Shown here: positions 7,476-59,549 of the stretch, in pieces
Layout of the letters: each line of letters starts with the position of its first letter
How positions within the stretch are numbered: position 1 is the stretch's first letter
IMG/VR virus record: IMGVR_UViG_3300011339_000564
Coordinates: 14,318-78,317 of that record
Direction: 5' to 3' (one strand)
Length of the DNA: 64,000 nucleotides
From: a virus
Lineage: Duplodnaviria; Heunggongvirae; Uroviricota; Caudoviricetes
Made by a program: the position numbers and the translations under genes
Notes under the pieces: model-generated
Told to the model about the DNA's origin: nothing
What the model saw: the letters and a program-made list of their open reading frames with translations, nothing else
The model's database searches: none

Positions 7476-8792
7476 ATGAATTTAAAAGAACTTGATTCCT
7501 TTCGCATCTCTGACGCTATTAGTTTCCATGACAAATTGAACCCTAAGTTATGGAATAATACACGGTTGCGTCCTGAAGTAAAACAACAACTATTAATAAT
7601 AGCAGAAGATTTTTTAGAAGAATTAGGTATTAGTGGATTAGATGTAATAGACATGACTGTATCTGGTTCTAATGCCGCATTTAGTTATACACCCAACAGC
7701 GACCTAGACTTACACATATTAGTTGATATGAGTAAGTTGCCAAATGATGAAGTTTACAGAGAATTATTTACAGCAAAAAAATCATTATACAATGACAGCC
7801 ACGACATAAAAATACACGGGATACCAGTAGAGTTATATGTACAAGACGCCAGAGAACCAGTCGTAAGTCTAGGTGAGTACAGTCTCACAAATGATAACTG
7901 GCTTAAAATCCCATCAAAACGCAGAGCCAATTTTGACCAAACCGCCACCAAGACGAAATATGAAAAGTTATTAACATTAATAGAGCTAGCCCTCAAATCT
8001 AGAAAATACAGTAAAGTAAGTAACATAGCTAAAACAATTAAAAGATATAGACAATCAGGATTAGATAAGGGTGGCGAGTTTGGTCCTGAAAATCTAGCAT
8101 ACAAAGCATTAAGAGCACAGGGTTACATTACTAAGTTATACGATTTGCGTGACAAGTTACATAGTGAGAAGTTAACTATTGAAACGATGTACCAGCCCAT
8201 AAACGATGACTATGATCCAAATGGTCCTCCTCCAGGTCCCGAGTTTAAACCAACTATGCCTAAAGGTACTGTTAAAGTAGACGTAAGTGATGTATATGAT
8301 TGGTATAAGTTAGGACAACATATTAGTAATCTTAAGGGTCTAGGTAAGCACGACTTTGGTAGTGGACCTCCTAGTACTATTTTTTCATTTGGTGATGAAG
8401 ATACAGAACACCAGTACATTAAAGATTTAGAGAAGACCGGATTAACGACAACTGATATTGATCCAGTTGATCCCAAGCAACCCAAGGGTATGAAGCGTCA
8501 GAAAGTTGATCCTACATATAACGTCAATGAATACAACACTATGCAATTTGCGGCTGAAAAAACACCAGCAACAAACCCATATGGTGGTCTTAAAGATAAT
8601 CAATTTCGAGGAAGTATGTCAGAAGCAAGTGGATATATACCTTCAGAAAAACAAAAAAATGATCCTCGTTTTAGTACAGCATTGACAGTGGATGTTCATC
8701 CTGATTCAATCAAAAAGAACGCAAAAGCATTTGGATGGCTCACTAGCAGAGCCGGAATCCCTCCTACAGCGAAAGCAAACGGCAAAATCTGA
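7476..8792 (+). CDS. Pol-beta superfamily nucleotidyltransferase domain protein with a CTS-like N-terminus and a disordered C-terminal half
   Basis: The start was moved from 7398 to the ATG at 7476 because the longer ORF runs through the terminator. VSGSNAAFSYTPNSDLDLHILVD matches the GS...DxD NTase signature. N-terminus is MNLKELDSF. Confidence 0.55.
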   Translation: MNLKELDSFRISDAISFHDKLNPKLWNNTRLRPEVKQQLLIIAEDFLEELGISGLDVIDMTVSGSNAAFSYTPNSDLDLHILVDMSKLPNDEVYRELFTAKKSLYNDSHDIKIHGIPVELYVQDAREPVVSLGEYSLTNDNWLKIPSKRRANFDQTATKTKYEKLLTLIELALKSRKYSKVSNIAKTIKRYRQSGLDKGGEFGPENLAYKALRAQGYITKLYDLRDKLHSEKLTIETMYQPINDDYDPNGPPPGPEFKPTMPKGTVKVDVSDVYDWYKLGQHISNLKGLGKHDFGSGPPSTIFSFGDEDTEHQYIKDLEKTGLTTTDIDPVDPKQPKGMKRQKVDPTYNVNEYNTMQFAAEKTPATNPYGGLKDNQFRGSMSEASGYIPSEKQKNDPRFSTALTVDVHPDSIKKNAKAFGWLTSRAGIPPTAKANGKI

Positions 8793-9130: not shown

Positions 9131-9139
9131 TGATAAATA
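9131..9139 (+). promoter_or_regulatory. TGATAAATA motif (candidate late promoter element)
   Basis: Exact 9-mer 23 nt upstream of the ATG at 9163, flanked by two GGAATTCC palindromes (9105-9112 and 9152-9159). Confidence 0.3.
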
Positions 9140-9162: not shown

Positions 9163-9942
9163 ATGCGTTTTACAGAAATATCAGAATCTACAACATCAGG
9201 CTCAGTATCTACTGTAGCAATGCCACTAGGCAAAACTCAAACACGTACTCAAGTATCTGGTTTAGAACCCGTGAAAAAAGTAATGGGCGGCACTGCTAAG
9301 AAAAAAGGTCCATATGGAAATAGTCTTACTGAAGGTGCTATGAAGCAACTTTCAATGGATCTTAAAGAGTTAAAAGACGAAGAATTCAAAAAGAAATATA
9401 ATATGACTAAGCAGGAAGCCCGTACTGAATTATCTGCAAAGCCTGAACCCATCAAAGAAGCAGAACTATCTGAAGATGATATCATATTAGTTCCAGGACA
9501 GGGACGCAAAATGAAAACTGGATTTGTACCGCATGGTCAAAGTCGTGTAGACCATGAAGTAGAAATGGCACGTAGTGATTTATTCAGTGCGGCAAAGAAC
9601 GCTAAACAAGTATATGAAATGATTCATAGTGTATCTGAAGATGAGGGTCTTGAGGGCTGGGTACAAGAAAAGATTATCAAAGCCAACGACTACCTAAATA
9701 CAGTACGTGAATACTTAGAAGGTAAACAAATTCAACAAGAAGCTAGTAGTCTTACATATGAAGGTAAGATTGACTTTGCCAAAAAGATACAAAAGAATGT
9801 AGATAAGAGTAACAAAGCAGTAGTAAAGACTAGAAAAGAAGTTGGTGCAAGAATTGCTGATATTGGTGCAGGCGGCAAAGAACACAATGTTAAAACTGAC
9901 AAAGCGTGGGACGATGCACAAAAAGCAAAGAAAGCAAAATAA
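9163..9942 (+). CDS. Hypothetical protein with a CTS-like N-terminus (candidate capsid-internal protein)
   Basis: N-terminus MRFTEISES. Charged and low in complexity. 259 aa. Confidence 0.55.
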   Translation: MRFTEISESTTSGSVSTVAMPLGKTQTRTQVSGLEPVKKVMGGTAKKKGPYGNSLTEGAMKQLSMDLKELKDEEFKKKYNMTKQEARTELSAKPEPIKEAELSEDDIILVPGQGRKMKTGFVPHGQSRVDHEVEMARSDLFSAAKNAKQVYEMIHSVSEDEGLEGWVQEKIIKANDYLNTVREYLEGKQIQQEASSLTYEGKIDFAKKIQKNVDKSNKAVVKTRKEVGARIADIGAGGKEHNVKTDKAWDDAQKAKKAK

Positions 9943-9943
9943 A

Positions 9944-12900
9944 ATGAGCAATATTCTACAAGGCTTAAACGAAACACAAAAACATGACGGTGTATTCTTG
10001 TTAACAGAATCTCGTACATACAAGTTATGGGAGAGTGCTGGACAAAAGATTAGTGAAGCACAACTAACTGCCGATCAGATTAATCAAATCTTTAAACAAG
10101 TTGAACAAGGTGCTACTGCCGCAGGTGGTAATCGTACAATGCTCGGTAAAGGTAAAGACGCAGCCGGCGCAGTAAAGCAAGCATATGATGATTTGGTGAG
10201 TAAAGCACAGAACTCAGGACCTATTAAAGGTGTTGATGCGATGTACGACAAAGCCGCCGAAAAATTAAAACAAGCAACTGGTGGCGATCAGGGTGTAATG
10301 AAATATGTACAGAAATATCGTGACTTTGCTAAAGAACACCCAGTAGCACAAGGTTTAATATATTCAGCATTAATTGCAGCCGCTGGTATCAGTGGTGCAG
10401 GTATTGGTGGTGCAGCCGCACTAGGTTTGTTTAAGATGGTAGACAAATTGTTACAGGGTGAGAAGTTTAGTACTGCTGTAGGTAAAGGCGTAACTACTGG
10501 TGCAATGGCTTATGGTGCAAGTAAAGTTGGTGATCTTTTCAAAGGTTCACCGCAAGGCGCACCTACTACTGCTGGATCAGACGCTACCGCAGGTGCGGCA
10601 CAAGATACATTGTCTGCGACTAGACAAGCAGTGGAAAAAGAAGCTATGGATGCCATTAAGTCTAGAATTGCCAATGGAGAAATAGCACCCGGCGATCAAG
10701 GTGCCATACGATATTTGGCATACAAAATGCTAGCTGGATCATGTATGCCGCCGCCGTCTATAGAAACTTCTGTAGAAAAATTAATAACACGATCTATGGG
10801 TGATGTAGGAACTAGCGCAACTAATACAGTGTCCGGCACATTGTCAGGTGTTACCGGAGAACAGATGGCTAGTCATCCTGCATACCAAGCAATGATTCAA
10901 AAGTTTGGCAATACACCCGGCGCTCGTCAGGCGGCTATGGCTGCTGCCAAGTCAGCAATTCTTAAGGGACAAGTCAATGAAAGTATCAATTTATCAGAAT
11001 CTCAAATCTTTCTATTGATAGGTAAGATTGTTGAACGTCAACGTAAACTTGACGAAGGCATCATGGATACACTTAAAGGCGCCGCAGGTAAAGCCGCCGA
11101 TTGGGCACAAACTAAAGGAACTAATTTAACAACTAAAGTTACTGCTGACAAATTATTACAAGCGTGGAAGAAAGCTGGTAGTCCAACAGATAGTTTAGAT
11201 GTTGCAAGCATTATTCAAAAAGCTGGTGTACCATCTGATTCAATCAAACAAGTATACACTACAATGCAAATACCTTTTGCAGGTGAAAAAGGTGCAGGTG
11301 CGAGTACAAAACGTAATATAGATGTTGATCCATCAAGTGTTGCACCAGCCGCTCCAACAAGTACACCCACTGCTTCTGCACCGTCAGCTACAGCAAATGC
11401 GCCGGCGGCAGATGCATCACAGCCTGCTACGGCCGCAACTGGCTCTTTAGCACAAGCACAAGAACTCATTGCAAAATTAGATCCAGAAACTAAAACAAAA
11501 CTTATATCAACATTGAAACAAGAGTTGAGTGTAGCTGAAAGTCGAATCAATGAATTATCTAATGAAAAATTAGGACAATACAAAAAAGCCGCAAGTGCTG
11601 ACGCTACTGCCGCTGACAAAGCAGGTGACTATAAGCGTGGTGATAAACGTTTCAGTGGTATTGTTCGTGCAACTAACAAACAGTTTGCTAATGATACTAA
11701 AAAACATGGTCAGCAAGGTGTGGCGGAAGGCTTAGAGCAATCATTATCGTCAATGGTAAGACAAGATCAGACTGAGCGGAATGAGTATGCAACCTTTGTA
11801 AAATCACAAGCAGGTGGTGATTGGTCCAAAGGGGCTAAAATGTATGCTCAACTCAAAAAAAGACCCATCGATGATATATTTGGTGATGCAATAAGATTAA
11901 ACCAGTTTATGAAAATGAAGTTTGATTTTGATAAATTTACCAATGAAGATTGGGACAATTATTGGTTGTTAGCACAGCATTGTGATAATAATCGTGACTT
12001 TCAAAAGAATGCTTTATCAATAATTAAAAAATATCAAGGTACAGATCATTCGCACTACAAATATCTATACGATAGAATCAGTATGGGTCTAACTGGTAAA
12101 CAGAAATACGGAACACAGAATATTAAAGAGCAAGGCGTGGCAGAAGGCTTCCCTCATGATGTTGACCATATGCCGGGTCCTGTGATTCGCAATGCTGATA
12201 TGACTACAGATAATGTCAAGACCAAAGACAAAGCAGAATGGGACAGAGCCACTGATAGCATCAACGCACGGGTGTTTGATGATATGAGTGAATTTCGCAC
12301 TGACAACAACGGTGAAACAGTTGTCGGTGATAGCGCAGTTTGGGCCAAGTGGGACAATGCTACACAAACAGGTTGGTTCAATGCCAAAGGTCGCCCATTA
12401 AAGCCTTGGCCTGTTAAAGAGCAAGGTGTGGCGGAAGGTGATGGGCCAAGATATATTGATAACATAATGAACCAGTATAAGGCAGGCTTGCCTGGCCAAA
12501 ACCCGGCGGCCTTATCTAAACCAACTAGAGCAGTTGATGCCAGAGGTCGCACACAAGAACAATGGGCACAATTAGTTAGGAGCAAGTTTCCGGGTGCTAA
12601 AATTACACAGGCTAAAATGATTGACGGGCCTATGCAAGCAACCTTACCTGATGGTAGAAAACTTGGATGGAAAAAAGTTGAACAAATTGATGAAATTATT
12701 GATCCTAGCACAAAGATGGCATGGGCATTACGCCACATCGCCGGGTTCCTTACTAGATTATTTCCTTACGCAGTGGGCGCCGGAACTTTGTGGGCAGCCA
12801 GTGGACTGTTGGCCCCACTAGTGGCTGCATCCGGTGGAGTGGCCGCGGCAATTTCTGCATTAGGCGGTTCAATGGGATCAGCTACAGGCGCGGCTGCAGG

Positions 12901-13795
12901 AGCAGTTGGCGGTGCCAGTATAATGCAAATTATTAAAAACTTATTTGCCGCAGACGAGAATAGTATACAAGCAGGAATTAAAAAGTGGGTAGAAAGACAA
13001 GTAGGTGACGAAGCCGATGTACAAGAATTTTTACTAACTCATGCCAAAGCCGCATATGACGGTAAACCTGGTTTCCGTTGGAGGGCTAAAGAGTGGCCTG
13101 TTAAATTAAGTAAAGATCAAGCAGAAGCATATTTAGAAAAGAAAGATAAATCTTGGCTTGATTATGAAAAGCAAAAAATAATCGATGCTGAAAAAGCGAA
13201 GGCTGAAAAAGATAAAGAAGGTATGATGGAAGAACAACTTGATGAACTAAATTGCTGGTCAGGTTACCATAGAGTTGCCGGCACTAAAGCAGGCTTTCCA
13301 GGTAGTTGTGCTAAAAATAAAACAAATGAATCAGAACATAAATGCCCACATTGCGGTGGCGAGATGGTTAGTGAAGAACTAATGAATGAAAAGAAAGATG
13401 CTTGCTACTATAAAGTAAAGAGCCGTTATAAAGTATGGCCAAGTGCTTATGCTAGTGGTGCGTTAGTTAAGTGCCGTAAGAGTGGTGCTGATAGCTGGGG
13501 CAACGGTGGAAAGAAGAATGAAGGTTCTATACTAGAAGGTATTAACCGAGCAGACGAAAGTTTGCATGATTGGTTTAATAAAGAAAAGTGGGTTCGCATG
13601 GATACTAAAGGAAAGATTAAAGGTCCGTGTGCTAGAGAACCAGGAGAAGGTAAACCTAAATGTTTACCTCAAGCAAAGGCACATAGTTTAGGCAAAAAAG
13701 GTCGTGCAAGCGCGGCTGCTAGAAAACGCAGAGAAGATCCCAATCCAGAACGTAGTGGTAAAGCCATCAATGTTAATACTAAAAAGAAAGACTAA
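9944..13795 (+). CDS. Giant modular protein (1283 aa), candidate virion-internal or ejection polyprotein
   Basis: Start set at the ATG at 9944, 1 nt after the upstream stop (the track start at 9842 overlaps the upstream gene). It has three QGVAEG motifs, an EGMMEEQLDELN motif, G/A-rich hydrophobic segments, an Ala/Pro/Thr low-complexity linker, and a Cys-rich basic C-terminus (CPHCGG...). Confidence 0.7.
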   Translation: MSNILQGLNETQKHDGVFLLTESRTYKLWESAGQKISEAQLTADQINQIFKQVEQGATAAGGNRTMLGKGKDAAGAVKQAYDDLVSKAQNSGPIKGVDAMYDKAAEKLKQATGGDQGVMKYVQKYRDFAKEHPVAQGLIYSALIAAAGISGAGIGGAAALGLFKMVDKLLQGEKFSTAVGKGVTTGAMAYGASKVGDLFKGSPQGAPTTAGSDATAGAAQDTLSATRQAVEKEAMDAIKSRIANGEIAPGDQGAIRYLAYKMLAGSCMPPPSIETSVEKLITRSMGDVGTSATNTVSGTLSGVTGEQMASHPAYQAMIQKFGNTPGARQAAMAAAKSAILKGQVNESINLSESQIFLLIGKIVERQRKLDEGIMDTLKGAAGKAADWAQTKGTNLTTKVTADKLLQAWKKAGSPTDSLDVASIIQKAGVPSDSIKQVYTTMQIPFAGEKGAGASTKRNIDVDPSSVAPAAPTSTPTASAPSATANAPAADASQPATAATGSLAQAQELIAKLDPETKTKLISTLKQELSVAESRINELSNEKLGQYKKAASADATAADKAGDYKRGDKRFSGIVRATNKQFANDTKKHGQQGVAEGLEQSLSSMVRQDQTERNEYATFVKSQAGGDWSKGAKMYAQLKKRPIDDIFGDAIRLNQFMKMKFDFDKFTNEDWDNYWLLAQHCDNNRDFQKNALSIIKKYQGTDHSHYKYLYDRISMGLTGKQKYGTQNIKEQGVAEGFPHDVDHMPGPVIRNADMTTDNVKTKDKAEWDRATDSINARVFDDMSEFRTDNNGETVVGDSAVWAKWDNATQTGWFNAKGRPLKPWPVKEQGVAEGDGPRYIDNIMNQYKAGLPGQNPAALSKPTRAVDARGRTQEQWAQLVRSKFPGAKITQAKMIDGPMQATLPDGRKLGWKKVEQIDEIIDPSTKMAWALRHIAGFLTRLFPYAVGAGTLWAASGLLAPLVAASGGVAAAISALGGSMGSATGAAAGAVGGASIMQIIKNLFAADENSIQAGIKKWVERQVGDEADVQEFLLTHAKAAYDGKPGFRWRAKEWPVKLSKDQAEAYLEKKDKSWLDYEKQKIIDAEKAKAEKDKEGMMEEQLDELNCWSGYHRVAGTKAGFPGSCAKNKTNESEHKCPHCGGEMVSEELMNEKKDACYYKVKSRYKVWPSAYASGALVKCRKSGADSWGNGGKKNEGSILEGINRADESLHDWFNKEKWVRMDTKGKIKGPCAREPGEGKPKCLPQAKAHSLGKKGRASAAARKRREDPNPERSGKAINVNTKKKD
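11714..11731 (+). repeat. Copy of the dispersed motif CAAGGTGTGGCGGAAGGC (QGVAEG)
   Basis: Contains the exact 16-mer core AAGGTGTGGCGGAAGG. Confidence 0.85.
12131..12148 (+). repeat. Copy of the dispersed motif (CAAGGCGTGGCAGAAGGC, QGVAEG)
   Basis: Two synonymous mismatches to the core. Shares the extended TTAAAGAGCAAGG context with the copy at 12422. Confidence 0.8.
12422..12439 (+). repeat. Copy of the dispersed motif CAAGGTGTGGCGGAAGGT (QGVAEG)
   Basis: Contains the exact 16-mer core. Confidence 0.85.
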
Positions 13796-15544: not shown

Positions 15545-15982
15545 ATGAAAAAAATTATAACAACAATACTATTGGCATTAGCCACTGTAACATATGCACA
15601 GAAAACACCTCAAGGTGTTACATACGATGCAAACATCATTAAAGTAAGTGACGGTGACACTATTGTTATTGCCGCACCTTTTTTACCAGCTCCATTAAAG
15701 CCACAGTTAGCAGTTAGAATATTTGGTGTTGACACCCCTGAAAAAGGATTCAGAGCTAAATGTGAATCAGAAAATCAACGTGGTTTAGCCGCTAGCGAGT
15801 TTACTAAGAAACTCGTAGGTGCTAGTCAGAAGCGTCAAGTGATATTATATGATTGGGATAAGTTTGGCGGCCGTGTCTTGGGTGACATTATATTAGACGG
15901 CAAAAGCCTACGACAACAATTGATTGCTAATGGCTTTGCCCGTGAGTATTTTGGTGAAGCCAAGCAATCTTGGTGTAATTAA
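15545..15982 (+). CDS. Secreted thermonuclease (SNase-like)
   Basis: Signal peptide MKKIITTILLALATVTYAQ. VSDGDTIVI and RIFGVDTPE are staphylococcal-nuclease motifs. Confidence 0.8.
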   Translation: MKKIITTILLALATVTYAQKTPQGVTYDANIIKVSDGDTIVIAAPFLPAPLKPQLAVRIFGVDTPEKGFRAKCESENQRGLAASEFTKKLVGASQKRQVILYDWDKFGGRVLGDIILDGKSLRQQLIANGFAREYFGEAKQSWCN

Positions 15983-16707: not shown

Positions 16708-16787
16708 AGTAATTTTTTCTATATTTTGTAAATTTTTATGCCAAATGGAATAAATATATGTTCATCATATTTATTATCGGAGGACAG

Positions 16788-19741: not shown

Positions 19742-19981
19742 ATGAAAGAACATATCTACACATCATCCAAAGGAGAGAGTTTTTTATCATGGGATGATTG
19801 GGCACTCCAAACACTAAACGAAAGTGATTTGAGTGTTTATCTTAGCCCCCAAGTAGAAGGTTCAACATTATCTGCTGATAAATTGGCTTTATATGCACGT
19901 TGGGTAGACGAAGAACAAATATTAACACACGTTGTTAAAGAAGATGATGTTATAATACAACAATCAAATGCACTCAAGTAA
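19742..19981 (+). CDS. Hypothetical protein
   Basis: ORF MKEHIYTSSKGESF... The alternative ATG at 19712 lies inside the TGATAAATA motif, so the downstream start is preferred. Confidence 0.5.
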   Translation: MKEHIYTSSKGESFLSWDDWALQTLNESDLSVYLSPQVEGSTLSADKLALYARWVDEEQILTHVVKEDDVIIQQSNALK

Positions 19982-20540
19982 TTTTATTACAGAATCTGCC
20001 GTAGATGAGTTAGCAAAAAAACTACCCTCATTGACTAAACACGACTATGATACCATTGATACATTAATGAGAAGTATTGCCAGTAGACATAGCATGAGTG
20101 GTAATGCATTACATGATTTGTTTGTAAAAAAATATAAAAGAACACCCGATAACTGGATTAAACATAAATTAGACGAAGGTGATGATTCAGATTTGCAACA
20201 AGAAGTTGATAAATTCTGCGATTGGGCATGTAAACGATTGCATATAAAATCTAAACCTGAAATTGAACTCAGTATGGATACTGAAGAAGCACAAAATAAT
20301 CATCATACAGGTGGTCATCAAATGGGCGCTGATAGTATTTGGGTATATGTAAATAATCGTAACCTAGTTGATATACTACGCACAGTATTTCATGAATTGG
20401 TTCATGTGCGCCAAGGTGAATTAGATATGATTAAGCCGGGTGATAGTTACCCAGGTAGCCCAATTGAAGCAATGGCAGATATGCTTGCGGGCAAATACAT
20501 CAAAATTTATGGTGAACAGAACCATCATATCTTTCAATAA
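19968..20540 (+). CDS. HExxH metallopeptidase-like protein with a CTS-like N-terminus
   Basis: The FHELVHVRQ HExxH motif and the N-terminus MHSSNFITES (compare MRAKEFITEG at 41773). Confidence 0.5.
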   Translation: MHSSNFITESAVDELAKKLPSLTKHDYDTIDTLMRSIASRHSMSGNALHDLFVKKYKRTPDNWIKHKLDEGDDSDLQQEVDKFCDWACKRLHIKSKPEIELSMDTEEAQNNHHTGGHQMGADSIWVYVNNRNLVDILRTVFHELVHVRQGELDMIKPGDSYPGSPIEAMADMLAGKYIKIYGEQNHHIFQ

Positions 20541-41299: not shown

Positions 41300-41773
41300 T
41301 TATAGACCAATCTTGGGTGGATACATTGGGCCAGACTTTATTCGTTCACCACCGTCAAAGTAACTAATTTCTACTGGTAATTCTTTCCAGCCTAATCTAT
41401 GTGCAGCCATGATACGATGATTACCTTCGTTTACCCAGGCACTGCCATCATAGGCCACATTGATAAAAGGTTTGTATTCTTCACTAGAGTGTGAATGTAA
41501 TGGTAGCTTGCCGGTGTCCTTCATTATTTTCATAATTGCAATAAGATCACCTTGACGCACATTTTGTTGTTCGTTTCGCATACCGGGTATTTGTCTTAGT
41601 AAGTTAACAGGAATTTCAACTTTTCTGACAGTAGCAGTTGTCTTTCCCATGTAGGGCAAACCATTACGATCAGGACTTTTTTGCTTGGCATACGCAATAG
41701 CATCGTTTAGCCATTCCTCATTAGGCACATCAACACTAAGTGTTCCTTCAGTTATAAATTCTTTTGCTCTCAC
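41300..41773 (-). CDS. ParB/sulfiredoxin-fold domain protein with a CTS-like N-terminus
   Basis: N-terminus MRAKEFITEG. VEIPVNLLRQIPGMR...DGSAWVNEGNHRIMAAHRLGWKELPV matches the ParB N-terminal domain pattern (DG....eGnHR..Aa..lG). Confidence 0.5.
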   Translation of the reverse strand: MRAKEFITEGTLSVDVPNEEWLNDAIAYAKQKSPDRNGLPYMGKTTATVRKVEIPVNLLRQIPGMRNEQQNVRQGDLIAIMKIMKDTGKLPLHSHSSEEYKPFINVAYDGSAWVNEGNHRIMAAHRLGWKELPVEISYFDGGERIKSGPMYPPKIGL

Positions 41774-42444
41774 ATTGATCCTTTAGAATTAACAAACCAG
41801 GGGTCAACTATAACTAATTCTCCATTACTACGTTGCATGACATTTTCGGTGTGCAAGTCCCAACCAAATTTGTTTATTCTACCCGATTGATATAATAGTT
41901 TCATTACACTAAACAAGGTAGCATACGTCTTATAAAAAGTAACACCTTGCTGTGTCATTGCATTATCTATAAGTTTAGCCATTTTAGATGATATTGGGCT
42001 AGAGAAGAATTTCCAAGTTTCAGGATCAGTTAGTGAAGGTAAGATTTGTTGCCAAGTCTCACCTGTAACAGCATAGTCACTTAATATCCAGACCATTGCT
42101 TCTTCAACACTGTTCTTTTTAATAGGCTGAAGATGTTCCATGTCAATTTGTATGTAATCCTCACCGGCAATATCGATTGTATTCATTTCATTAAATATAG
42201 GTAAACAAGAAATCTCAGGATGATTTTCACAGAATTCGTAAAACTTTTTAAATACTTTTTCAGCGTGACCACTAGGATCATCTGGCATTAATATTTTAAT
42301 CACATGACTAGTATCTTTAGCCCATACTCTTGCATCAGCTCCGCTACCAATATGTTTGTAACCTAGTGATTTTAAATGCGCGGCAATTTCTTTGAAGGCT
42401 GGTCCTGTTGCAGCCTCATCTACTGCAAATTCATTGGCTCTCAT
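41770..42444 (-). CDS. Protein kinase-like (APH/choline kinase-like) fold protein with a CTS-like N-terminus
   Basis: N-terminus MRANEFAVDEA. IGSGADARVW (Gly loop), HVIKIL (Lys), DLHTENVM (catalytic loop) and LVIVDPW. Confidence 0.5.
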   Translation of the reverse strand: MRANEFAVDEAATGPAFKEIAAHLKSLGYKHIGSGADARVWAKDTSHVIKILMPDDPSGHAEKVFKKFYEFCENHPEISCLPIFNEMNTIDIAGEDYIQIDMEHLQPIKKNSVEEAMVWILSDYAVTGETWQQILPSLTDPETWKFFSSPISSKMAKLIDNAMTQQGVTFYKTYATLFSVMKLLYQSGRINKFGWDLHTENVMQRSNGELVIVDPWFVNSKGSM

Positions 42445-42623
42445 TTCTTGCGACCCCTAAACCCTACTGGCATCTGCAAATCATTAACGGGAAACATTGC
42501 TTTGAACCACTCATCAGTACCAGGCTTAGCAGTAATTTTGCTACGGTCTATAGGCACAGAAGATGTAGGTTTTCCTCTATGGTCGGTAACTCCTGCAAGT
42601 CTTTTAAGTTGATCTATGTTCAT
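42441..42623 (-). CDS. Small hypothetical protein
   Basis: 60 aa, MNIDQLKRLAGV..., overlap-coupled within the minus-strand operon. Confidence 0.5.
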   Translation of the reverse strand: MNIDQLKRLAGVTDHRGKPTSSVPIDRSKITAKPGTDEWFKAMFPVNDLQMPVGFRGRKK

Positions 42624-43174
42624 AGACTCTTACCCCAGCGTGTGTTAATCACATTCCAGTTGATAATCTTCCACTGTTCAGCCAAATACTTTTTCTTATC
42701 AGCACCGTAGTCTAATATCCACGCATGTTCCCACCAATCAACTAATAACAATATATCATTGCGTACTTCATGGTTCTTAATTGTTTTAATTTTACCATCA
42801 GTTGCTAAATATACCCACCCACTACCTTGTATCTTCATTGCTTCAGTTTCAAACTGTGACTTCATATTATCGTATGAGCCAAAATGTTTGTTAATAAAGC
42901 CCATCATGGGGCCGTTTGGATTGTTTTTATTTCTTACTTCACGGAACTGAGGGAACAATGTATTATGTAAGAATGCACCTGCATAGTTAAATTCTTTATC
43001 TCCGATATCTTTGTTATATCTTTCAGCATAGCCATGTGCTAACTTGCCATAGTGTAAGTCTATAGTGTCTACCGACAAAACCGGACTTAGTTCTTTTGGC
43101 TCAAAATTAAGCTGAATGATTTCTATATCTTGAGGTTTTGACTTATCCTCAAGTAACTGAATTAAATCACGCAT
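42620..43174 (-). CDS. sodB: Fe/Mn superoxide dismutase
   Basis: DTIDLHYGKLAHGY, FLHNTLF, FGSYDNMKSQF, GSGWVYL, LLLVDWWEHAWILDY and INWNVI align with SodB blocks. All four metal ligands are present. Confidence 0.8.
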   Translation of the reverse strand: MRDLIQLLEDKSKPQDIEIIQLNFEPKELSPVLSVDTIDLHYGKLAHGYAERYNKDIGDKEFNYAGAFLHNTLFPQFREVRNKNNPNGPMMGFINKHFGSYDNMKSQFETEAMKIQGSGWVYLATDGKIKTIKNHEVRNDILLLVDWWEHAWILDYGADKKKYLAEQWKIINWNVINTRWGKSL

Positions 43175-44955
43175 CAGTGTTTCAATAATAATGTAGAAAT
43201 GATGTTAGGATCGTTAGCACTGATATCACCTTCACCGGGTGCAACGATAACATTGTACTTCATACCGGCTGGTATTGATTTACGTTTAGCCATGTACTGA
43301 TTATAGTCTAATATAGAGTTGGCACTTAATCCATACTCTTTTGCAAGACGATTCTTTAGTTCAGGTAACTTATCAGGTTGTACTTGCCATTGGCCTTCTG
43401 ACCCCTTAACTAAGTTTTTCTTTTCGTCCTTAACTAATAAATCTTGGAACAAGTCATCTGGAACAATACGACTATTCTTAGTTTTATCTAAGTTAGCATC
43501 ACTTGCCTTAACTTGTTTCTCTTGTGATGTATGAGCACCTTCACTCCAATTGATAATAAAGTTAGGTGGCTTCTGACCTAATGCGGCACCAGCCATCTTT
43601 GTGTAAGCATAGAACTTAGTATCAGGATGCTTTGCAGCCATCTTTAATGCCAAGTCTAAATATTCTGGGCTGAAGAAGTCACCAGCATCATGCCAACGAA
43701 TAGTAGTTTGCCAACCTTTAGGGAATTTCTTATCACCCTTTTGACCAGCTTGTTCTTCTTTGCTAATCTCACTACTTAATTGATTGAAGAACCCGTCTGG
43801 ATCATTCAATAGATATGTTAATATTCTTCCGTCACTTTGCCATGCGTTCTTAAACTGAATTTTTCCGCCCTTCATAGCAAAACAATCTATTTTACATGAG
43901 CCTGCGCCCGGGCATGTATTAACAATGATTAGTTTATTTGTTTGTTCGTCTAGTGCAATACCAGTCAATGCCGCAAAGCCAACGTTGAAGAATTGTTCAA
44001 ACTCTCCGTTACTATGCTTCATCTTTTCGTTTTGCTTTAGTAATGATTTAGGGCGTTGTGACAATGTTTTCTTAACTGCATCCTCATCATATGTTGCACC
44101 ATCTGGACCTAAGTATTCAACTACACTACTACGGTGGATATAAGGCATTTTGTATCTATCTGTTTTTGTTTTACCAGATACATATTTTTCATTACCCTTT
44201 TTATCTACCTTAACATTACCTGCTTTGTCTGTATCAGGAGTACCAACAATACGTTTCATGTAATCTTGGAACTCATCGCCACCAAACTCACGGCTACTTG
44301 CTGGCAGTTTAGTTGCTTCTTCTAAGCCAGATAGTTTGCGAATTCTATCTAAGCCTTCCGCCACACCTTCATTTGCACTTTGACTAGCCAATTTATAAAT
44401 ATACGCAGTACCGTTGGGTAATAGATACGTAGTATAATTTCCTATACCCCTCTCACCCATTTGAGCCTGTTGAATTGTTATCATTTTTGCGCCGCGCGGC
44501 GTTGGGCCATCATTAGGTACCAGCATACCTTTATATTCTTTGCCTCCATGGTGCACAACTATACCAGTGTCGCTTCGTTCTACTTTTTCTGCTGTATCAA
44601 CATTTTGATTTGGCATCTGACCACCAGATTTTTCTGCACTGGCTTGAAATCCTTGTTGAGCCATTTGTTGTGCGGCACTAGGTGACATTTGGCCATCAGC
44701 ACCAAGACTAACTCTTGCGTGTGCAGAGCCAGCTGACCCTAACGCACCCATTGCACCTAATGCCATTGCACCTGTTGCGGCTGCTTTTTTCCAATTAATT
44801 TCGTCAAGTTGCTCTTCCGTCATACCTTCTTCTGATTCTTCATCGGGCATATCACCCGCTTTAGTAACGAATTGCTGAGGTGTCATAATTTGGATGCCAC
44901 TAGGTGCTCCAGGCATTTTTGGCTCTACGCCTTCGAATAGTTCTTTGAAATTCAT
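43174..44955 (-). CDS. Large modular protein with a CTS-like N-terminus, an internal signal-peptide-like segment and a Cys-rich C-terminal domain
   Basis: N-terminus MNFKELFEG. EGMTEEQLDEINWKKAAATGAMALGAMGALGSAGSAHA. One NEGVAEG motif. The C-terminal TCPGAGSCKIDCFAMKG...IRWHDAGDF...YAYTK recalls the phage GP88-type domain (from memory, unverified). Confidence 0.6.
   Translation of the reverse strand: MNFKELFEGVEPKMPGAPSGIQIMTPQQFVTKAGDMPDEESEEGMTEEQLDEINWKKAAATGAMALGAMGALGSAGSAHARVSLGADGQMSPSAAQQMAQQGFQASAEKSGGQMPNQNVDTAEKVERSDTGIVVHHGGKEYKGMLVPNDGPTPRGAKMITIQQAQMGERGIGNYTTYLLPNGTAYIYKLASQSANEGVAEGLDRIRKLSGLEEATKLPASSREFGGDEFQDYMKRIVGTPDTDKAGNVKVDKKGNEKYVSGKTKTDRYKMPYIHRSSVVEYLGPDGATYDEDAVKKTLSQRPKSLLKQNEKMKHSNGEFEQFFNVGFAALTGIALDEQTNKLIIVNTCPGAGSCKIDCFAMKGGKIQFKNAWQSDGRILTYLLNDPDGFFNQLSSEISKEEQAGQKGDKKFPKGWQTTIRWHDAGDFFSPEYLDLALKMAAKHPDTKFYAYTKMAGAALGQKPPNFIINWSEGAHTSQEKQVKASDANLDKTKNSRIVPDDLFQDLLVKDEKKNLVKGSEGQWQVQPDKLPELKNRLAKEYGLSANSILDYNQYMAKRKSIPAGMKYNVIVAPGEGDISANDPNIISTLLLKH
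44353..44370 (-). repeat. Copy of the dispersed motif (reverse complement GAAGGTGTGGCGGAAGGC, EGVAEG)
   Basis: Contains the exact 16-mer core on the minus strand. Confidence 0.85.
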
Positions 44956-45644
44956 TTCTTGTGGTTCCTAATAAATTGTTCTGCTAGCATTACTAATTCT
45001 TGCATTTGCTCAATAGATTCACAATGCCATCTACGTAAACTCTTATTAATATTGCTGTTTGGATCACGTGCTGTTTTAGCACTTGTACGATGTTTCTTCA
45101 TACCGCGCATTCTAGCGCAAAAACTAGCACGGCGCTTTGCGTCCTTGCTACCCTTTTTAATCTTGCTTGGCTTTTTAGTAACTGCTGTTTGAATCTTGCT
45201 ACCAGGATGACTACGGCGATAACTACTTACAGATTTTTTACTCATCCCACCTACACGTTTGTTATTGTGCTTTGACCAATTCTCGCCTTCCGCCACACCT
45301 TGACTTAATAATTTTTTAACAGATATTGGACCTGATTGATTTTCTGCACCGGTTAAAAATTCATTTCCCCATGGGGTTATCCAACCATCAAATTCAATAT
45401 CATTGCCTTGAACCATAATATCATTATTACCATCAAGGTTTTGATATCCATTCAACTCTTTGTACCATTTTCTTAATGATTGTAACTTGTATGGACCTTT
45501 GTAGCCTTGTTTTTTCAAAATAGAAATAATTTCCGGAGTAAATCCAACTGGTTGACCCTCAGATACTTTCTCTTTTTTGCTAATAGCAATAGCGGCTTGT
45601 TGTGCTGGATTTGCGGCTTCTGTTAAAATTTCTGTTATTCTCAT
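44952..45644 (-). CDS. Hypothetical protein with a CTS-like N-terminus and a basic C-terminal domain
   Basis: N-terminus MRITEILTEAA, one SQGVAEG motif, and a basic C-terminus RRASFCARMRGMKKHR...RRWHC. Confidence 0.6.
   Translation of the reverse strand: MRITEILTEAANPAQQAAIAISKKEKVSEGQPVGFTPEIISILKKQGYKGPYKLQSLRKWYKELNGYQNLDGNNDIMVQGNDIEFDGWITPWGNEFLTGAENQSGPISVKKLLSQGVAEGENWSKHNNKRVGGMSKKSVSSYRRSHPGSKIQTAVTKKPSKIKKGSKDAKRRASFCARMRGMKKHRTSAKTARDPNSNINKSLRRWHCESIEQMQELVMLAEQFIRNHKK
45285..45302 (-). repeat. Copy of the dispersed motif (reverse complement CAAGGTGTGGCGGAAGGC, QGVAEG)
   Basis: Contains the exact 16-mer core on the minus strand. Confidence 0.85.
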
Positions 45645-45699: not shown

Positions 45700-45708
45700 T
45701 ATTTATCA
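45700..45708 (-). promoter_or_regulatory. TGATAAATA motif on the minus strand (candidate late promoter for the 45644-41300 operon)
   Basis: TATTTATCA on the + strand, 56 nt upstream of the minus-strand ATG at 45644. Confidence 0.3.
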
Positions 45709-48859: not shown

Positions 48860-48884
48860 CAACATCTAAATAGTAGTATATAAT
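48856..48884 (+). promoter_or_regulatory. sigma70-type promoter TTGACA-17-TATAAT; leaderless transcript predicted
   Basis: The -35 at 48856-48861 contains the upstream stop TGA (48857-48859). The -10 is at 48879-48884 and the ATG at 48891 follows 6 nt later. Confidence 0.6.
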
Positions 48885-48890: not shown

Positions 48891-49889
48891 ATGAAATACG
48901 CACTCATTGACACAGCAAATACATTCTTCCGTGCCCGTCACATTGCATCACGTAATAGTGATACATGGGAAAAGATCGGCATGGCCCTACACTTGACATT
49001 GGCAAGTACTAATCAAATTGTTCGCAAGTTTGGTGTGGATCACGTTGTGTTTTGTTTAGAGGGTCGTAGCTGGCGCAAAAGTTTCTACGAGCCATACAAG
49101 AAAAATCGCATTGTTGATACACTATCACAAACAGAAGCCGAGATTGAAGAAAATAAAATGTTCTGGGAGACGTATGAAGTATTTACAAATTTTTTACGTG
49201 AGAAAACTAATGTTAGTGTCCTTCGTCATGCTGAGGCTGAGGCTGATGACTTAATTGCACGTTTCATTCACTTGCATCCCGATGATGAACATTTTATTAT
49301 CAGTAGCGATAGCGACTATGTGCAATTGATTACCGAAAATGTAAAACAATATAATGGGGTAGCTAATCAACTGATTACGTTAGATGGTTACTTTGATGAC
49401 AAGGGTAAGATTGTCAAAGATAAGAAAACTAAAGAACCCAAGCTACTAGAAGATCCACAATATTTGCTATTTAAAAAATGTATGCGGGGTGATGGTACTG
49501 ACAATGTGTTTAGTGCTTATCCTGGTGTGCGTGAGAAAGGTAGCAAGAATAAAGTTGGCTTGATGGAAGCATATGCTGATAGAGAAAAACAGGGCTACCA
49601 GTGGAACAATCTACTACTTCAACGCTGGCTAGACCATAATGGAGTAGAACATCGTGTACGTGAGGATTATGAACGTAATCGTATACTAATTGATTTGACT
49701 GCACAACCTCAGGATATCAAAGACAAGGTTGATGCTAGTATCATTGAGGGTGTTCGTACAACTACTACCCCTCAAGTTGGTATTCACTTTATGCGATTCT
49801 GTGGCAAATATGAGTTGACTAAGATTAGTGAACAAGCAGAAACATATGCGAAATGGTTGAATAGTCCTTACATGGGAAGTTTAGTATGA
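48891..49889 (+). CDS. 5'-3' exonuclease / flap endonuclease (T4 RNase H-like)
   Basis: LIDTANTFFRARH, AEAEADDLIA, ISSDSDYVQL, and an H3TH-like GDGTDNV. Confidence 0.8.
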   Translation: MKYALIDTANTFFRARHIASRNSDTWEKIGMALHLTLASTNQIVRKFGVDHVVFCLEGRSWRKSFYEPYKKNRIVDTLSQTEAEIEENKMFWETYEVFTNFLREKTNVSVLRHAEAEADDLIARFIHLHPDDEHFIISSDSDYVQLITENVKQYNGVANQLITLDGYFDDKGKIVKDKKTKEPKLLEDPQYLLFKKCMRGDGTDNVFSAYPGVREKGSKNKVGLMEAYADREKQGYQWNNLLLQRWLDHNGVEHRVREDYERNRILIDLTAQPQDIKDKVDASIIEGVRTTTTPQVGIHFMRFCGKYELTKISEQAETYAKWLNSPYMGSLV

Positions 49890-50092
49890 ATGAAATAATT
49901 AAAGAACTAATGAAACATGCCGGTACTGATACTAGTGGTAAATGGATGGGTGTAGAACACGCTGAAAAGTTCACCGAATTGATTGTGCAGGAATGTGCTG
50001 ATGTTCTATTAAAGTGGAAGGGTGAACCCTTTCCATTTGATGAAGACCTTGCGGCAAGTCTAATTAAAGAACATTTCGGAGTTGGATCGTGA
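49886..50092 (+). CDS. Member of the small 'FAELIVREC...HFGVEE' paralog family
   Basis: MNEIIKELMKHAG...KFTELIVQECADV...KEHFGVGS. Confidence 0.6.
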   Translation: MNEIIKELMKHAGTDTSGKWMGVEHAEKFTELIVQECADVLLKWKGEPFPFDEDLAASLIKEHFGVGS

Positions 50093-50292
50093 ACGAACGA
50101 ATTAAACAGATTGCAGATGACTGCGGATTGTATATTGCCTACGACAATAGAGAAGTGACTAACAAAGAGTTATCATTTTTTGCCGAGACAATCGTGCGAG
50201 AATGTATGGATGTTGTTAGTAAAGCCACTGCCAGTCCAAACGGATATCAGGCTCTTATGAAACATTTCGGAGTTGATAATGTGGGCACGTGA
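50089..50292 (+). CDS. Member of the small 'FAELIVREC...HFGVEE' paralog family
   Basis: GTG start. MNERIKQIADDCG...FFAETIVRECMDV...MKHFGVDN. Confidence 0.6.
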   Translation: MNERIKQIADDCGLYIAYDNREVTNKELSFFAETIVRECMDVVSKATASPNGYQALMKHFGVDNVGT

Positions 50293-51839: not shown

Positions 51840-52297
51840 CTAATAAAATACTAATTGCAAAACCAGTAGTACAGAACCAGTTCTGGATAGTAACAGACGG
51901 AAACGAAAAAGTCGGTAACGTATTAGCTGATGGTTCCGGGTTTGAAGTTAAACTGAATGGTAACAAAACTCATTTTAAAAATACAAATGCTATTGAGAAG
52001 CAAACTAAAATTGAATTCCAGAAGGTTAAGAAAGAAAAAGTTAAAAAAGATATTCCTTTCAGTGAATACCCAACAACTAAAAAGGTATATAATTCTATCT
52101 TAGATATCAAACGTAAGATTCACTTGTTTACAAAGACACCAAAAAGTAAGTGTTATTATGCCGCAGGATGGTATATTGTTAGTCAGGGTAGTGAACCTAC
52201 TATAGAATTTTGCCCTAAATATATCTTTATTCAGCGTTATGACTACGTTGGTCCATTTAAAACAGAAGATGAAGCAAAAGACTTGATAAATATCTAA
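51836..52297 (+). CDS. Hypothetical protein
   Basis: 153-aa ORF with ATGA overlap. Confidence 0.55.
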   Translation: MTNKILIAKPVVQNQFWIVTDGNEKVGNVLADGSGFEVKLNGNKTHFKNTNAIEKQTKIEFQKVKKEKVKKDIPFSEYPTTKKVYNSILDIKRKIHLFTKTPKSKCYYAAGWYIVSQGSEPTIEFCPKYIFIQRYDYVGPFKTEDEAKDLINI

Positions 52298-53818: not shown

Positions 53819-53916
53819 AATATGTATTTATGTCAACGGAATACATAGCTGCCGCGTTATATATATGTAGACACAAAAAATGTTGTTCTACTTTCATTAA
53901 CATAAAGGAAATCAAA

Positions 53917-57788: not shown

Positions 57789-57817
57789 TTGACAGTAATT
57801 GGATTTGGGTATATAAT
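57789..57817 (+). promoter_or_regulatory. sigma70-type promoter TTGACA-17-TATAAT
   Basis: TTGACA at 57789-57794 and TATAAT at 57812-57817. Confidence 0.6.
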
Positions 57818-58115: not shown

Positions 58116-58140
58116 CAATAAATCACTTTGGGTATATAAT
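58112..58140 (+). promoter_or_regulatory. sigma70-type promoter TTGACA-17-TATAAT
   Basis: The -35 at 58112-58117 contains the upstream stop TGA (58113-58115). The -10 is at 58135-58140. Confidence 0.6.
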
Positions 58141-58387: not shown

Positions 58388-59041
58388 ATGGCTCGCTATC
58401 AAAAACCCGTTCTCAATATCCCTGCTGAAAACGTCTGGGGTGCGGCATGTCAGGCACAACGCATTAACGGTGCCTATGTTAAACTGAGTGTGTTGACAGA
58501 GGCTGACAAGACAGAGAACAAATTGTCCAATCGTCAACTGGTCGAAAGTTTCATGGTTGACCCTAGCTTGATTACCGAAGAAGATATGGAGCAAGGTAAA
58601 AAAGTTCGTGCATTTTATCAGGCATTCACTTTCAAAATCTTGCAAGGCAAACGATTGAATGAATTTGACAACACCGCAATGTTGCTTGCCAATCGTGATG
58701 TTATTACTGGTAGTTATGATGTTGCGGTTATTGCTAGTTTGCCAAGTTGCTATGAGCGTGGTATGAAACGTCAAACAGCAGACCAACGTGTTAATTTTGC
58801 TAGCGGTGGATTTGTGGGTTCAGTTGGTGATAAAGTTTCAACTACTATTGAAGTATTGAAATCTGTATTCTCAATGAAATGGGGCACACACTATGTTACC
58901 GGCATCACTAGTGATGACCAAGTAGTGTTCTTTGCTTACAAAAGTGAATTACCAATTGGTAAGATATATGATATTTATGGTACTGTTAAAGCACACCGAG
59001 ATAACACTACCCAACTTAATCGTGTAAAGGTTATTGTATGA
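58388..59041 (+). CDS. Hypothetical protein
   Basis: 217-aa ORF with a GGAG RBS. Confidence 0.6.
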   Translation: MARYQKPVLNIPAENVWGAACQAQRINGAYVKLSVLTEADKTENKLSNRQLVESFMVDPSLITEEDMEQGKKVRAFYQAFTFKILQGKRLNEFDNTAMLLANRDVITGSYDVAVIASLPSCYERGMKRQTADQRVNFASGGFVGSVGDKVSTTIEVLKSVFSMKWGTHYVTGITSDDQVVFFAYKSELPIGKIYDIYGTVKAHRDNTTQLNRVKVIV

Positions 59042-59325
59042 ACGAACGAATTCGACAACTGGCTCTACAGGCTGATGAATATGCTGAACAAACTGTTCAT
59101 TATTATATGGGTCAGTTTGATGGATTGACTTGGGAAGGCAAAATCAAACAAACAAGAGATACAAAGTTCGCCGAGTTGATTGTTAGGGAATGTATTGACA
59201 AGATTACAACTTATGATTTGGTTCCAGGTCATTCAGCCAAATGGGAAGATATCTACGATATCCATACTAGGCTGCTACAAGACTTAGGTGAAGAATTGAA
59301 AGAACATTTCGGAGTTGAAGAATGA
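59038..59325 (+). CDS. Member of the small 'FAELIVREC...HFGVEE' paralog family
   Basis: MNERIRQLALQADEY...KFAELIVRECIDK...KEHFGVEE. Confidence 0.65.
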   Translation: MNERIRQLALQADEYAEQTVHYYMGQFDGLTWEGKIKQTRDTKFAELIVRECIDKITTYDLVPGHSAKWEDIYDIHTRLLQDLGEELKEHFGVEE

Positions 59326-59549
59326 ATACAGAATTGATTCAGAAATTGAAGTCACAATGTATCTTCCGTGAAATGCGTGGTACTACTGCGTTTAACAGTT
59401 ATATGGTAGATCGGTTTGATAGTGAAAAGTTTGCAGAACTGATTGTACGAGAGTGTGACCGTTATGCCCGTAGTGTATGGGAACATGGTCCATTGTTAGG
59501 TAAGGATTTGTTAATACATTTTGGAATTGAGGAGATGAGTGATGAGTAA
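59322..59549 (+). CDS. Member of the small 'FAELIVREC...HFGVEE' paralog family
   Basis: MNTELIQKLKSQC...KFAELIVRECDRY...IHFGIEE. Confidence 0.6.
   Translation: MNTELIQKLKSQCIFREMRGTTAFNSYMVDRFDSEKFAELIVRECDRYARSVWEHGPLLGKDLLIHFGIEEMSDE

Follow-up and report, generated by a model that had tools for sequence, protein, structure and literature searches.

A leader resembling the T4 capsid targeting sequence begins unrelated cargo genes in an uncultured jumbo phage lineage

Leader-bearing genes of the window

The window analysed here is the whole stretch of 64,000 nt at positions 14,318-78,317 of the Caudoviricetes record IMGVR_UViG_3300011339_000564, and all coordinates are the window's own. Its minus strand carries an operon (45644..41300) in which most genes begin with a short leader peptide of the type M-R-x-x-E-[FIL]-[IL]-x-E. 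The leader takes up the first 8-10 codons of seven window genes; five of these are in the operon and the remaining two, g259 and g190, lie outside it. An earlier note on this DNA had likened the leader to the capsid targeting sequence (CTS) of phage T4 and had listed eight such N-termini, all of which are encoded where it placed them. The leader genes and the genes related to them are as follows, a slash in a peptide marking the predicted cut.

41300..45644, minus strand: six-gene, translationally coupled operon of leader-bearing cargo, with open reading frames (ORFs) overlapping by 1-4 nt
44952..45644, minus strand: g230, with leader MRITEILTE/ (nt 45618-45644), an 'AANPAQQ' module, QGVAE/G and a basic Cys-containing DUF6321 module
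45288..45296, minus strand: V-A-E of the g230 junction LSQGVAE/GENW, a predicted protease site or linker
43174..44955, minus strand: g593, with leader MNFKELFE/ (nt 44932-44955), QLDE/, NEGVAE/G (V-A-E at nt 44356-44364) and a GP88 domain (about nt 43516-44040)
42620..43174, minus strand: g184, with leader MRDLIQLLE/ (nt 43148-43174), then an Fe/Mn superoxide dismutase (SOD)
42441..42623, minus strand: g60, a small basic protein with the N-terminus MNIDQLKRLAG and no clear cleavable leader; 11 orthologues
41770..42444, minus strand: g224, with leader MRANEFAVDE/ (nt 42415-42444), then a protein-kinase-like domain
41300..41773, minus strand: g157, with leader MRAKEFITE/ (GTG start, nt 41747-41773) and a ParB/Srx-fold domain with an invariant EGNHRI motif
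9163..9942, plus strand: g259, with leader MRFTEISE/ (nt 9163-9186), then STTSGSVSTVAMPLG.. and an unknown domain
9944..13795, plus strand: g1283, polyprotein-like, with the variant N-terminus MSNILQGLNE/ and Gly/Ala-rich hydrophobic segments
19968..20540, plus strand: g190, with leader MHSSNFITE/ (nt 19968-19994), a helical N-domain, a KLDE/G linker (nt 20169-20177) and an HExxH mini-zincin-like domain
7476..8792, plus strand: nucleotidyltransferase (NTase) gene, not leader-bearing; phrog_36119, E = 3e-45

The operon genes encode, in order, proteins of 230, 593, 184, 60, 224 and 157 aa, the last from a GTG start. Replication and repair genes on the plus strand flank the operon, which runs the other way, and GC and AT skew invert there. 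The same operon was found on independent metagenome contigs.

Occurrence and portability of the leader

The overall consensus of the leader is about nine residues, M-R-A-x-E-F-I-x-E/[A/S/G/D]. A regular expression for the motif matched 8 of the 1163 possible starts in the window, seven being gene starts (7/99 gene starts vs 1/1064 other starts; Fisher p = 2e-7). When a position-specific scoring matrix trained on non-window sequences only was scored against the same 1163 starts, the top four were 41773, 45644, 42444 and 19968 (+3.7 to +6.6 standard deviations). Across 1.4 Mb of related loci the motif stands at 133/2037 first starts vs 50/10518 internal Met codons.

A scan of IMG/VR for DNA encoding MRAxEFIxE returned at least 120 stretches with 145 matches listed. 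For 116 of the listed matches no earlier start is possible in the ORF, and many matches belong to genes of about 125 aa that stand in tandem and have a leader apiece. The 145 comprise 141 different 27-mers, with every synonymous codon in use. Since synonymous codons vary freely in the leader, selection acts on the peptide and not on the mRNA; an mRNA-level (translation-initiation) origin of the leader was rejected on account of this codon diversity. Phe, Ile and Glu are the most conserved positions (F in 194/243, I/L/V in 238/243 and E in 243/243, the last partly forced by the search pattern), and the equivalent of T4 Tyr4 is not conserved. In the g190 family the leader is kept across more than 1700 homologues, with positions 2-4 and 8 drifting and E-[FIL]-[IL]-x-E fixed.

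The leader also travels between proteins. At 80 IMG/VR loci around g593 orthologues, the same leaders are found on the orthologues and on about 20 other, unrelated cargo clusters, which substitute for one another at the operon locus in relatives. The leader is thus a real and portable element that is selected at the peptide level. In the papers searched, nothing was found on this leader in phages that are jumbo or environmental, on its spread, or on polyproteins coded with such linkers.

The CTS of T4 was reportedly characterised by Mullaney and Black in 1996. Tags of this type span some 10-19 aa at the very N-terminus of the precursor. On the T4 record the N-termini are MKTYQEFIAE/A for IPII and IPIII, MKTFKEFTST.. 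for IPI, MELITELFDE/D for Alt, MAKINELLRE/S for gp24 and MLKEQLIAE/A for gp22. MRAKEFITE/G shares the entire E-F-I-x-E core with IPIII, so the resemblance to MKTYQEFIAE that the earlier note had pointed out agrees with the T4 sequences; MRITEILTE/A resembles Alt. Mutagenesis of T4 IPIII assigns targeting to residues 4 and 7 (F7) and processing to residues 8 and 10 (I8, E10) (PMC9026906).

Internal junctions and polyproteins

Domains that follow the leader in one protein sit elsewhere inside polyproteins, right after [V/I/L/M]-x-E, typically QGVAE. The ParB domain is one example: it begins as MRAKEFITE/GTLSVDV behind the leader and internally as ..QQGVTE/GTLSVDV, ..QGLIE/STLSVDV and ..DITE/GRLSVDV. 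DUF6321 is preceded by V-A-E, M-D-E, L-N-E, F-S-E and others, then Gly, and [VMLF]-x-E-G occurs there in about 20 different proteins. The predicted end of the leader therefore coincides with domain junctions. At 217 non-redundant internal sites that are homologous to the start of the mature protein, Glu stands at P1 in 58.5% vs a background of 6.4%, and [VLIMF]-x-E is found in 27.6% vs 2.0%.

The GVAEG sequence occurs five times in the six-frame translation of the window, three times in g1283 and once each in g593 and g230, and GVAE is 13-fold denser in the leader-bearing ORFs of the window than in its others. The three [QE]QGVAE/G junctions of g1283 have their V-A-E at nt 11720-11728, 12137-12145 and 12428-12436. 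Its C-terminus (about nt 13241-13795) contains four small basic Cys modules with x-x-E/ before each; elsewhere these modules are stand-alone leader proteins, e.g. MRAEEFITE/DLRKWFKEKW... In the related loci compared here (L-numbers) and among fusion proteins (P-numbers) the same arrangement is found. The fusion P0014 reads leader-GNAT-DITE/G-ParB, P0012 and P0018 being built likewise, and the L452 homologue of g1283 has nine QG[VI][AT]E sites spaced by 59-75 residues, its last module elsewhere following an N-terminal leader directly. In g190 the LDE/G site falls in a low-confidence interdomain linker of the structure model. As predicted cut sites, these internal QGVAE linkers, which the earlier note had not picked up, are the strongest sequence evidence, and the match between leader end and domain junction is the key result of the analysis.

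The rule for T4 gp21 is usually given as L/I-x-E and that for phiKZ as S/A/G-x-E. A hydrophobic P3 with Glu at P1 is the pattern of the gp21-processed N-termini on the T4 record. The junctions here do not follow the phiKZ-type motif, with its small residue at P3: the families whose junctions are clearest have V, I, L or M there. Prohead proteases cut after Glu behind a short motif, and the cleavages in 201phi2-1 are after Glu (PMC9026906).

Cargo proteins of the operon

The gene g230 ends in its DUF6321 module (E = 5e-11; also phrog_727 and others). This domain is present in T4-like cyanophage and pelagiphage proteins, and the g230 modules occur internally in other proteins behind ..GVGE/ and ..SQNE/. 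The g593 gene encodes GP88, a domain of unknown function (PF17338, E = 1e-23), and the leaders of its orthologues read MNFKEL[FHLYM]EG and MKI[RT][QE]L.EG. Its QLDE/ junction is followed by a signal-peptide-like hydrophobic segment, INWKKAAATGAMALGAMGALGSAGSAHA (nt 44716-44799, minus strand).

The two enzyme assignments made earlier for g184 and g224 hold. The SOD has a Pfam match to Sod_Fe_C (E = 4e-24, 84.9 bits, cutoff 20.9) and one to Sod_Fe_N that is below its cutoff of 27 (E = 1.5e-4, 22.6 bits). Its four His/His/Asp/His metal ligands were seen by eye only (HYGK, FLHNTLF, DWWEHAW), and its leader is conserved across 31 orthologues. The g224 protein matches phrog_15752, a T7 gp0.7-type protein kinase, over residues 4-216 (E = 4e-11); its match to Kinase-PolyVal (E = 0.003, 18 bits) is below the Pfam cutoff of 27.

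The ParB/Srx fold that had been proposed for g157 agrees with both a structure model and a fold search. Nearly all of the top 50 PDB matches have this fold (ParB-N, Srx, Noc, KorB, SerK, SbnI, PadC), and the protein has no Pfam match. The invariant EGNHRI corresponds to the GxHR-type nucleotide-binding motif of that fold. The model has a pLDDT of 91.5, with leader residues 1-6 as the sole low-confidence segment (<50). The leader is found in 36 of 39 aligned homologues, the 3 most divergent being without it, and some members of the ParB-like family have inserts between leader and domain. Because the leader is disordered in the model and missing from divergent homologues, it is separable from the fold. 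A PDB sequence search with g157, g593 and g190 gave nothing useful.

Genes outside the operon

In the g190 family 102 of 120 homologues fit the leader pattern; the others are near variants, one reading MKTYQIVLES. The HELVH motif is invariant. The model (pLDDT 75) has two domains joined by a linker at residues 67-72 (<50), and fold matches to abylysin, selecase and Wss1 were obtained with a probability of 0.97-0.98 and a TM score up to 0.63 on the target. The earlier description as an HExxH metallopeptidase-like protein thus gains a mini-zincin-like fold, and the E-values behind it are weak, as discussed below.

Two of the earlier leader assignments had to be changed. The Pol-beta NTase at 7476 is confirmed as an NTase by its homologues and is not a leader protein: MNLKELDSF is missing the terminal Glu, and the alignment with homologues in unrelated phages (Maribacter, cyanophage and Lak) starts at residue 1, so that the N-terminus is part of the conserved domain. 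MRFTEISES had been given to a large Cys-rich protein; it begins the 259-aa ORF g259, and the Cys-rich g1283 is the next ORF, in another frame, with the N-terminus MSNILQGLNE. The open frames of the two genes overlap by 100 nt (9842-9944, plus strand). Single ORFs in relatives join a g259-like N-terminus with g1283-like C-terminal modules (L136:6265, 847 aa; L152:6505; L169:13365). The separation in the window could reflect a real split of the gene or a programmed frameshift, or come from an error of assembly.

The g259 leader is followed by STTSGSVSTVAMPLG (9187-9240, plus strand), and other small leader proteins read NASVGATSSGSVATVAMPVGG (L154, L163; L211:15734-16963). Both resemble a gp23-type mature N-terminus (Atu_ph07 ..LME/NATAGATSSGNVAV) and that of T4 gp24 (E/STTTNSNSIG). 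This likeness may reflect a shared contact motif of the capsid interior.

Cargo in relatives

The leader cargo of relatives includes an ART-PolyVal ADP-ribosyltransferase (E = 5e-14, above cutoff), GNATs, a DnaJ-type zinc finger and a GH19 hydrolase. The ART-PolyVal protein is a direct analogue of T4 Alt, and such cargo types are typical of injected effectors (PMC5512222, PMC7824862). Some cargo of relatives has a Tat/Sec-type signal peptide directly behind the leader (L084:14162-14839, L079:13080, L100:2992), as in MRINEIITE/DMSRRGFLGALGAGAMAASGAAQA-GH19, where the signal is of the Tat type. From this arrangement the leader may mask the signal peptide until capsid processing.

Source lineage and other window genes

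The source is placed by its relatives among uncultured freshwater jumbo phages of T4-superfamily jumbo group 2.2. Group 2 jumbo phages have gp23-type capsid proteins and a gp21-type S77 prohead peptidase (PMC7824862). The DNA polymerase of the window is 44-49% identical to those of Phosso, Atu_ph07 and RaK2/K64-1. The lineage is very abundant in IMG/VR, with the polymerase on at least 593 contigs, some reaching 364 and 524 kb; the best 80 of these have 85-95% identity. Searches of cultured phages with the operon by megablast and blastn gave zero nucleotide matches. By tblastn against cultured phages, the window kinase matched one distant T7-like kinase only (E = 4e-3), and a common small cargo protein was without any homologue.

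The window also codes for DnaJ, a ClpB-like ATPase, Dps/ferritin, a radical-SAM enzyme, UvdE, a flap nuclease, DNA ligase, glycosyltransferases and an epimerase; head genes are absent from the gene content of the 64 kb. The plus-strand segments 858-3919, 13805-14245, 15545-15982 and 16758-17747 contain the DnaJ and ClpB-like pair, Dps/ferritin, a TctC-like solute-binding protein and a signal-peptide-bearing 145-aa protein, the L452 counterpart of which is a staphylococcal-nuclease-like enzyme (PF00565). Two pairs of small paralogues at 49886-50292 and 59038-59549 (plus strand) share N-termini MNERI(K/R)Q(I/L)A. In both pairs GAACATTTCGGAGTTG stands immediately 5' of the second gene, at the 3' end of the first (by eye ..EHFGV..), and the pairs form a duplicated mini-cassette.

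Head genes and timing

The earlier note had suggested a search for prohead protease and scaffold genes. These were found in all relatives examined and were not located for the lineage of the window. With 32% identity to T4 gp21, Atu_ph07 gp204 has both the GELDHP and the GVSSRG motif conserved. The N-termini of Atu_ph07 head proteins read ..AALLE/GK for the major capsid protein (MCP), METGFEKLLE/G for the scaffold and MKLTELFNPLTE/S for a small post-portal protein. The mass-spectrometric virion proteome of Atu_ph07 was considered for leader-like N-termini and set aside, the phage being too distant. An IMG/VR scan with the Atu_ph07 MCP gave 80 loci, all of which carry the protease and an MCP with ..ALLE/GL. 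A scan with the compositionally closest MCP (L235) gave a second abundant MCP group (at least 598 contigs). In both MCP sets a leader-starting gene lies about 9.5 kb upstream of the MCP gene, so leader-type genes and gp21-type proteases share contigs in relatives.

This head-proximal gene (L372-L451 and L212-L291; e.g. L379:677, L411:489, L268:260) encodes a leader, then ..LDE/ and long Gly/Ala-rich hydrophobic repeats, which resemble segments of g1283 and g593. Its product may be a membrane-active ejection protein. The gp21-type proteases of L212-L291 begin ..YLRE/HLSFDQ..(V/I)xE/S, echoing the suspected autocleavage site of T4 gp21 (LIE-9).

Searches that tried to connect such head genes with the window were negative. 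T4 gp20-23 had zero matches in all related loci, and the Atu_ph07 and IMG/VR head proteins had zero matches in the loci of the lineage. None of the 80 loci of the Atu_ph07 MCP scan comes from the lineage of the window, the L235 scan had no contig in common with it, and a protease profile search placed none on a contig of this lineage.

Motifs like the T4 late promoter TATAAATA were found upstream of two leader-gene units:

45700..45708, minus strand: TGATAAATA motif, 55 nt upstream of the first ATG of the operon
9131..9139, plus strand: TGATAAATA motif, 23 nt upstream of the g259 start

The TGATAAATA motif is also upstream of the NTase gene. The form (TG)ATAAATA occurs at 7463-7471 (plus), 52284-52292 (plus), 53825-53831 (minus) and 16750-16756 (plus). 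The motif often ends just 4-6 nt before the ATG (34/64 cases upstream of leader genes), a spacing that suggests near-leaderless late mRNAs and favours 7476 over the upstream TTG at 7398 as the NTase start. A second upstream motif, GTATATAAT, is extended -10-like and precedes several plus-strand genes (465-473, 48876-48884, 57809-57817 and 58132-58140, plus strand). It is probably a different promoter class, early or middle.

Discussion

The leader is probably a T4-type capsid targeting sequence and propeptide, and the cargo that bears it would be packaged, processed and injected with the DNA. The earlier proposal of a T4-type leader is supported in part: it agrees with every computational test that was run, apart from its inclusion of the NTase and its assignment of MRFTEISES to the Cys-rich protein. 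The cargo folds were identified, as were T4-type proteases and LLE/G-type sites in relatives; core binding, cleavage, late timing, residence in the virion and injection are steps that we infer. The cargo proteins would be made late in infection, and the leader would bind them to the scaffolding core while the prohead assembles. Cutting after the Glu of hydrophobic-x-Glu would then fall to a prohead protease of the gp21 type (Pfam S77), which would also cut the internal [V/I/L/M]-x-E linkers, typically QGVAE/G, that string small modules into polyproteins. The freed enzymes and the small basic Cys-rich modules would stay in the head and enter the next host with the DNA. The enzymes delivered by this phage would be SOD, the kinase, the ParB/Srx NTP-binding domain, the mini-zincin and GP88, to which relatives would add the Alt-like ADP-ribosyltransferase, GNAT acetyltransferases and the GH19 wall hydrolase. 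Such cargo could act before any phage gene expression, in host take-over, anti-defence or DNA protection.

It is possible, if somewhat doubtful, that in this lineage, one of the most abundant among freshwater jumbo phages, a single T4-derived address-and-cut code serves three uses: the loading of perhaps dozens of enzymes per genome into the head, the release by the prohead protease of about 70-residue modules from polyproteins at QGVAE sites of regular spacing, and the masking of Sec/Tat signals. For the third use, masked cargo may be cytoplasmic for packaging and become export-competent after capsid processing, reaching the periplasm of the next host.

Several observations weigh against the packaging of injected cargo by a T4-type leader. 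The prohead protease, scaffold and MCP of the lineage itself were not located, as the scans reached other group 2.2 lineages only. The tetranucleotide similarity of the best head-locus candidates is 0.72-0.76 vs a lineage median of 0.87, which does not settle the link. The late-promoter-like motif stands upstream of 16% of leader genes vs 10.7% of genes (p = 0.003); since this enrichment is only 1.6-fold, late timing is plausible and not established. Some leaders are off consensus, the SOD reading MRDLIQLLE and those of g593 and g259 being shorter by one residue. [V]-x-E-G is also found inside the folded ParB core (WVNE/GNHR), so cut sites are not definable from sequence alone. The fold evidence has modest statistics as well: the strongest PDB matches of g157 have a probability of 0.9-1.0, E of about 1e-2 and a TM score of about 0.4, and the zincin matches of g190 have weak E-values of 0.2-0.5. 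Finally, the lineage is known from sequence alone and has no cultured member.

The leader could instead be a prohead-core propeptide on assembly or filler proteins, which would be degraded, expelled or kept as capsid-internal proteins only, with SOD and the basic modules protecting or condensing DNA and none of them an effector. The T4 scaffold and vertex proteins gp22, gp24 and gp67/68 carry the same protease site and N-terminal style, and the majority of the T4 core is lost from the head as fragments (PMC9026906). Many modules are tiny and basic with much Cys, which suits internal peptides that bind DNA, and the conserved head-proximal gene has Gly/Ala-rich segments after its leader. However, the kinase, Alt-like ADP-ribosyltransferase, GNATs, zincin and Tat-signal GH19 have no obvious role in a sealed capsid, and these enzymes fit what is known of T4 Alt, of the internal proteins and of polyvalent proteins that are injected (PMC5512222). 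In addition, the operon lies among replication and repair genes and not in a head module. We therefore regard a pure assembly role as unlikely.

A tag unrelated to the capsid, such as a recognition site for a chaperone (DnaJ/ClpB), a degron, a propeptide for a non-capsid protease or a translation-initiation feature, is rather improbable. The window does code for DnaJ and a ClpB-like AAA+ protein, the capsid protease of the lineage was not found in the scans, and the late-promoter evidence is weak. Yet the free use of synonymous codons places the signal in the peptide and not in the mRNA, the conserved residues are those important in the T4 CTS, and the same x-E boundary is found at internal linkers far from start codons. 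The hydrophobic P3 and Glu P1 follow the gp21 rule, and leader-type genes occur with gp21-type proteases on the same contigs in relatives. Chance, or a functionless relic of duplication or cassette recombination, would fit the hypervariable operon locus, where one place is taken by different cargo genes in different relatives, much as at the T-even internal-protein locus. Such an origin is very improbable given the extreme enrichment at true starts, the lack of nucleotide conservation (141 distinct 27-mers) and the retention of the leader across the more than 1700 homologues of the g190 family.

The targeting principle of T4 and the mass packaging of processed proteins in phiKZ-like phages were known already. 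What would be new is the extension of T4-type targeting and processing to enzyme arrays and polyproteins. Capsid cargo lists today need virion proteomics of cultured phages; if the packaging reading is true, MRAxEFIxE and [VILM]-x-E linkers would let the capsid cargo of uncultured jumbo phages be read from the genome alone. Hundreds of candidate first-minute effector and anti-defence families would be exposed in an abundant lineage, and the T4 CTS would be ancient and common to the T4 superfamily, including cyanophages. Engineered phage capsids that deliver proteins, a use already built on the T4 CTS, would also gain further natural tags and linkers that can be cleaved.

Comparison with known systems

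The CTS of T4 IPI, IPII, IPIII and Alt and its processing by the gp21 prohead protease have been reviewed (PMC3012670, PMC9026906). The system described here resembles it in having an N-terminal tag of about 10 residues with an E-F-I-x-E core and a hydrophobic-x-Glu end. In both, the tag is all that unrelated cargo has in common, the cargo locus differs from one relative to the next and an ADP-ribosyltransferase is part of the cargo (here in relatives). Unlike in T4, the tag is shorter by one residue (MRAxEFIxE vs MKTYQEFIAE), and the cargo families are far more numerous, most of them enzymes that can be recognised as such (SOD, kinase, ParB/Srx, zincin, GNAT, GH19). The predicted cut-site motif also serves as a regular linker (QGVAE) within polyproteins, which have up to about 10 modules; a Sec/Tat signal stands right behind the tag in some cargo, and the system is so far a matter of sequence only.

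Polyvalent proteins are multi-domain arrays of conflict enzymes in phages and conjugative elements that are thought to enter the host with the DNA (Iyer et al. 2017, PMC5512222); a single polypeptide has 2-15 such domains, PolyVal hallmark domains among them. The domain types here are similar (ART-PolyVal, kinase, ParB-like, zincin, GNAT) and are extensively shuffled. Multi-module proteins are present (g1283, g593, the P-fusions and L452), with Kinase-PolyVal below its Pfam cutoff, and MuF, DarB and other large polyvalent hallmark domains were not seen. In contrast to polyvalent proteins, the domains here are often separate small leader genes or are joined by a fixed protease-type linker, and delivery would use a T4-type head core and not MuF- or portal-associated giant proteins.

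Giant phages have ejection or inner-body proteins, as in phiKZ (gp175), SPN3US (gp245) and 201phi2-1 (PMC5694885, PMC7411985, PMC10052503). The phiKZ-like phages share with this lineage a jumbo genome and, as predicted here, dozens of packaged proteins, a gp21-related protease that cuts after Glu and possibly head-targeting propeptides. They differ in belonging to group 1, whereas this lineage is placed in group 2.2, and no short universal N-terminal tag has been described in them.

The cyanophage family T4-GC119 (P-SSM2 PSSM2_123, between gp15 and gp16) has the same basic Cys modules with V-x-E-G before them. The modules shared with PSSM2_123 and with the 'structural protein' 168 of Synechococcus phage Sf-FS3 are DUF6321, 'KKDACYxKVKSRY' and 'SLHDWFNK..'. 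The cyanophage modules, unlike those here, belong to a gene of the structural module that has no obvious leader at its N-terminus, and no enzyme cargo was seen there. The neighbouring Sf-FS3 gene 169 (L087:3360-3680), flanked by two annotated structural proteins, starts MRSFKQFMSE/S, in the same register as T4 IPIII. From this N-terminus the CTS seems to be conserved in cyanophages too.

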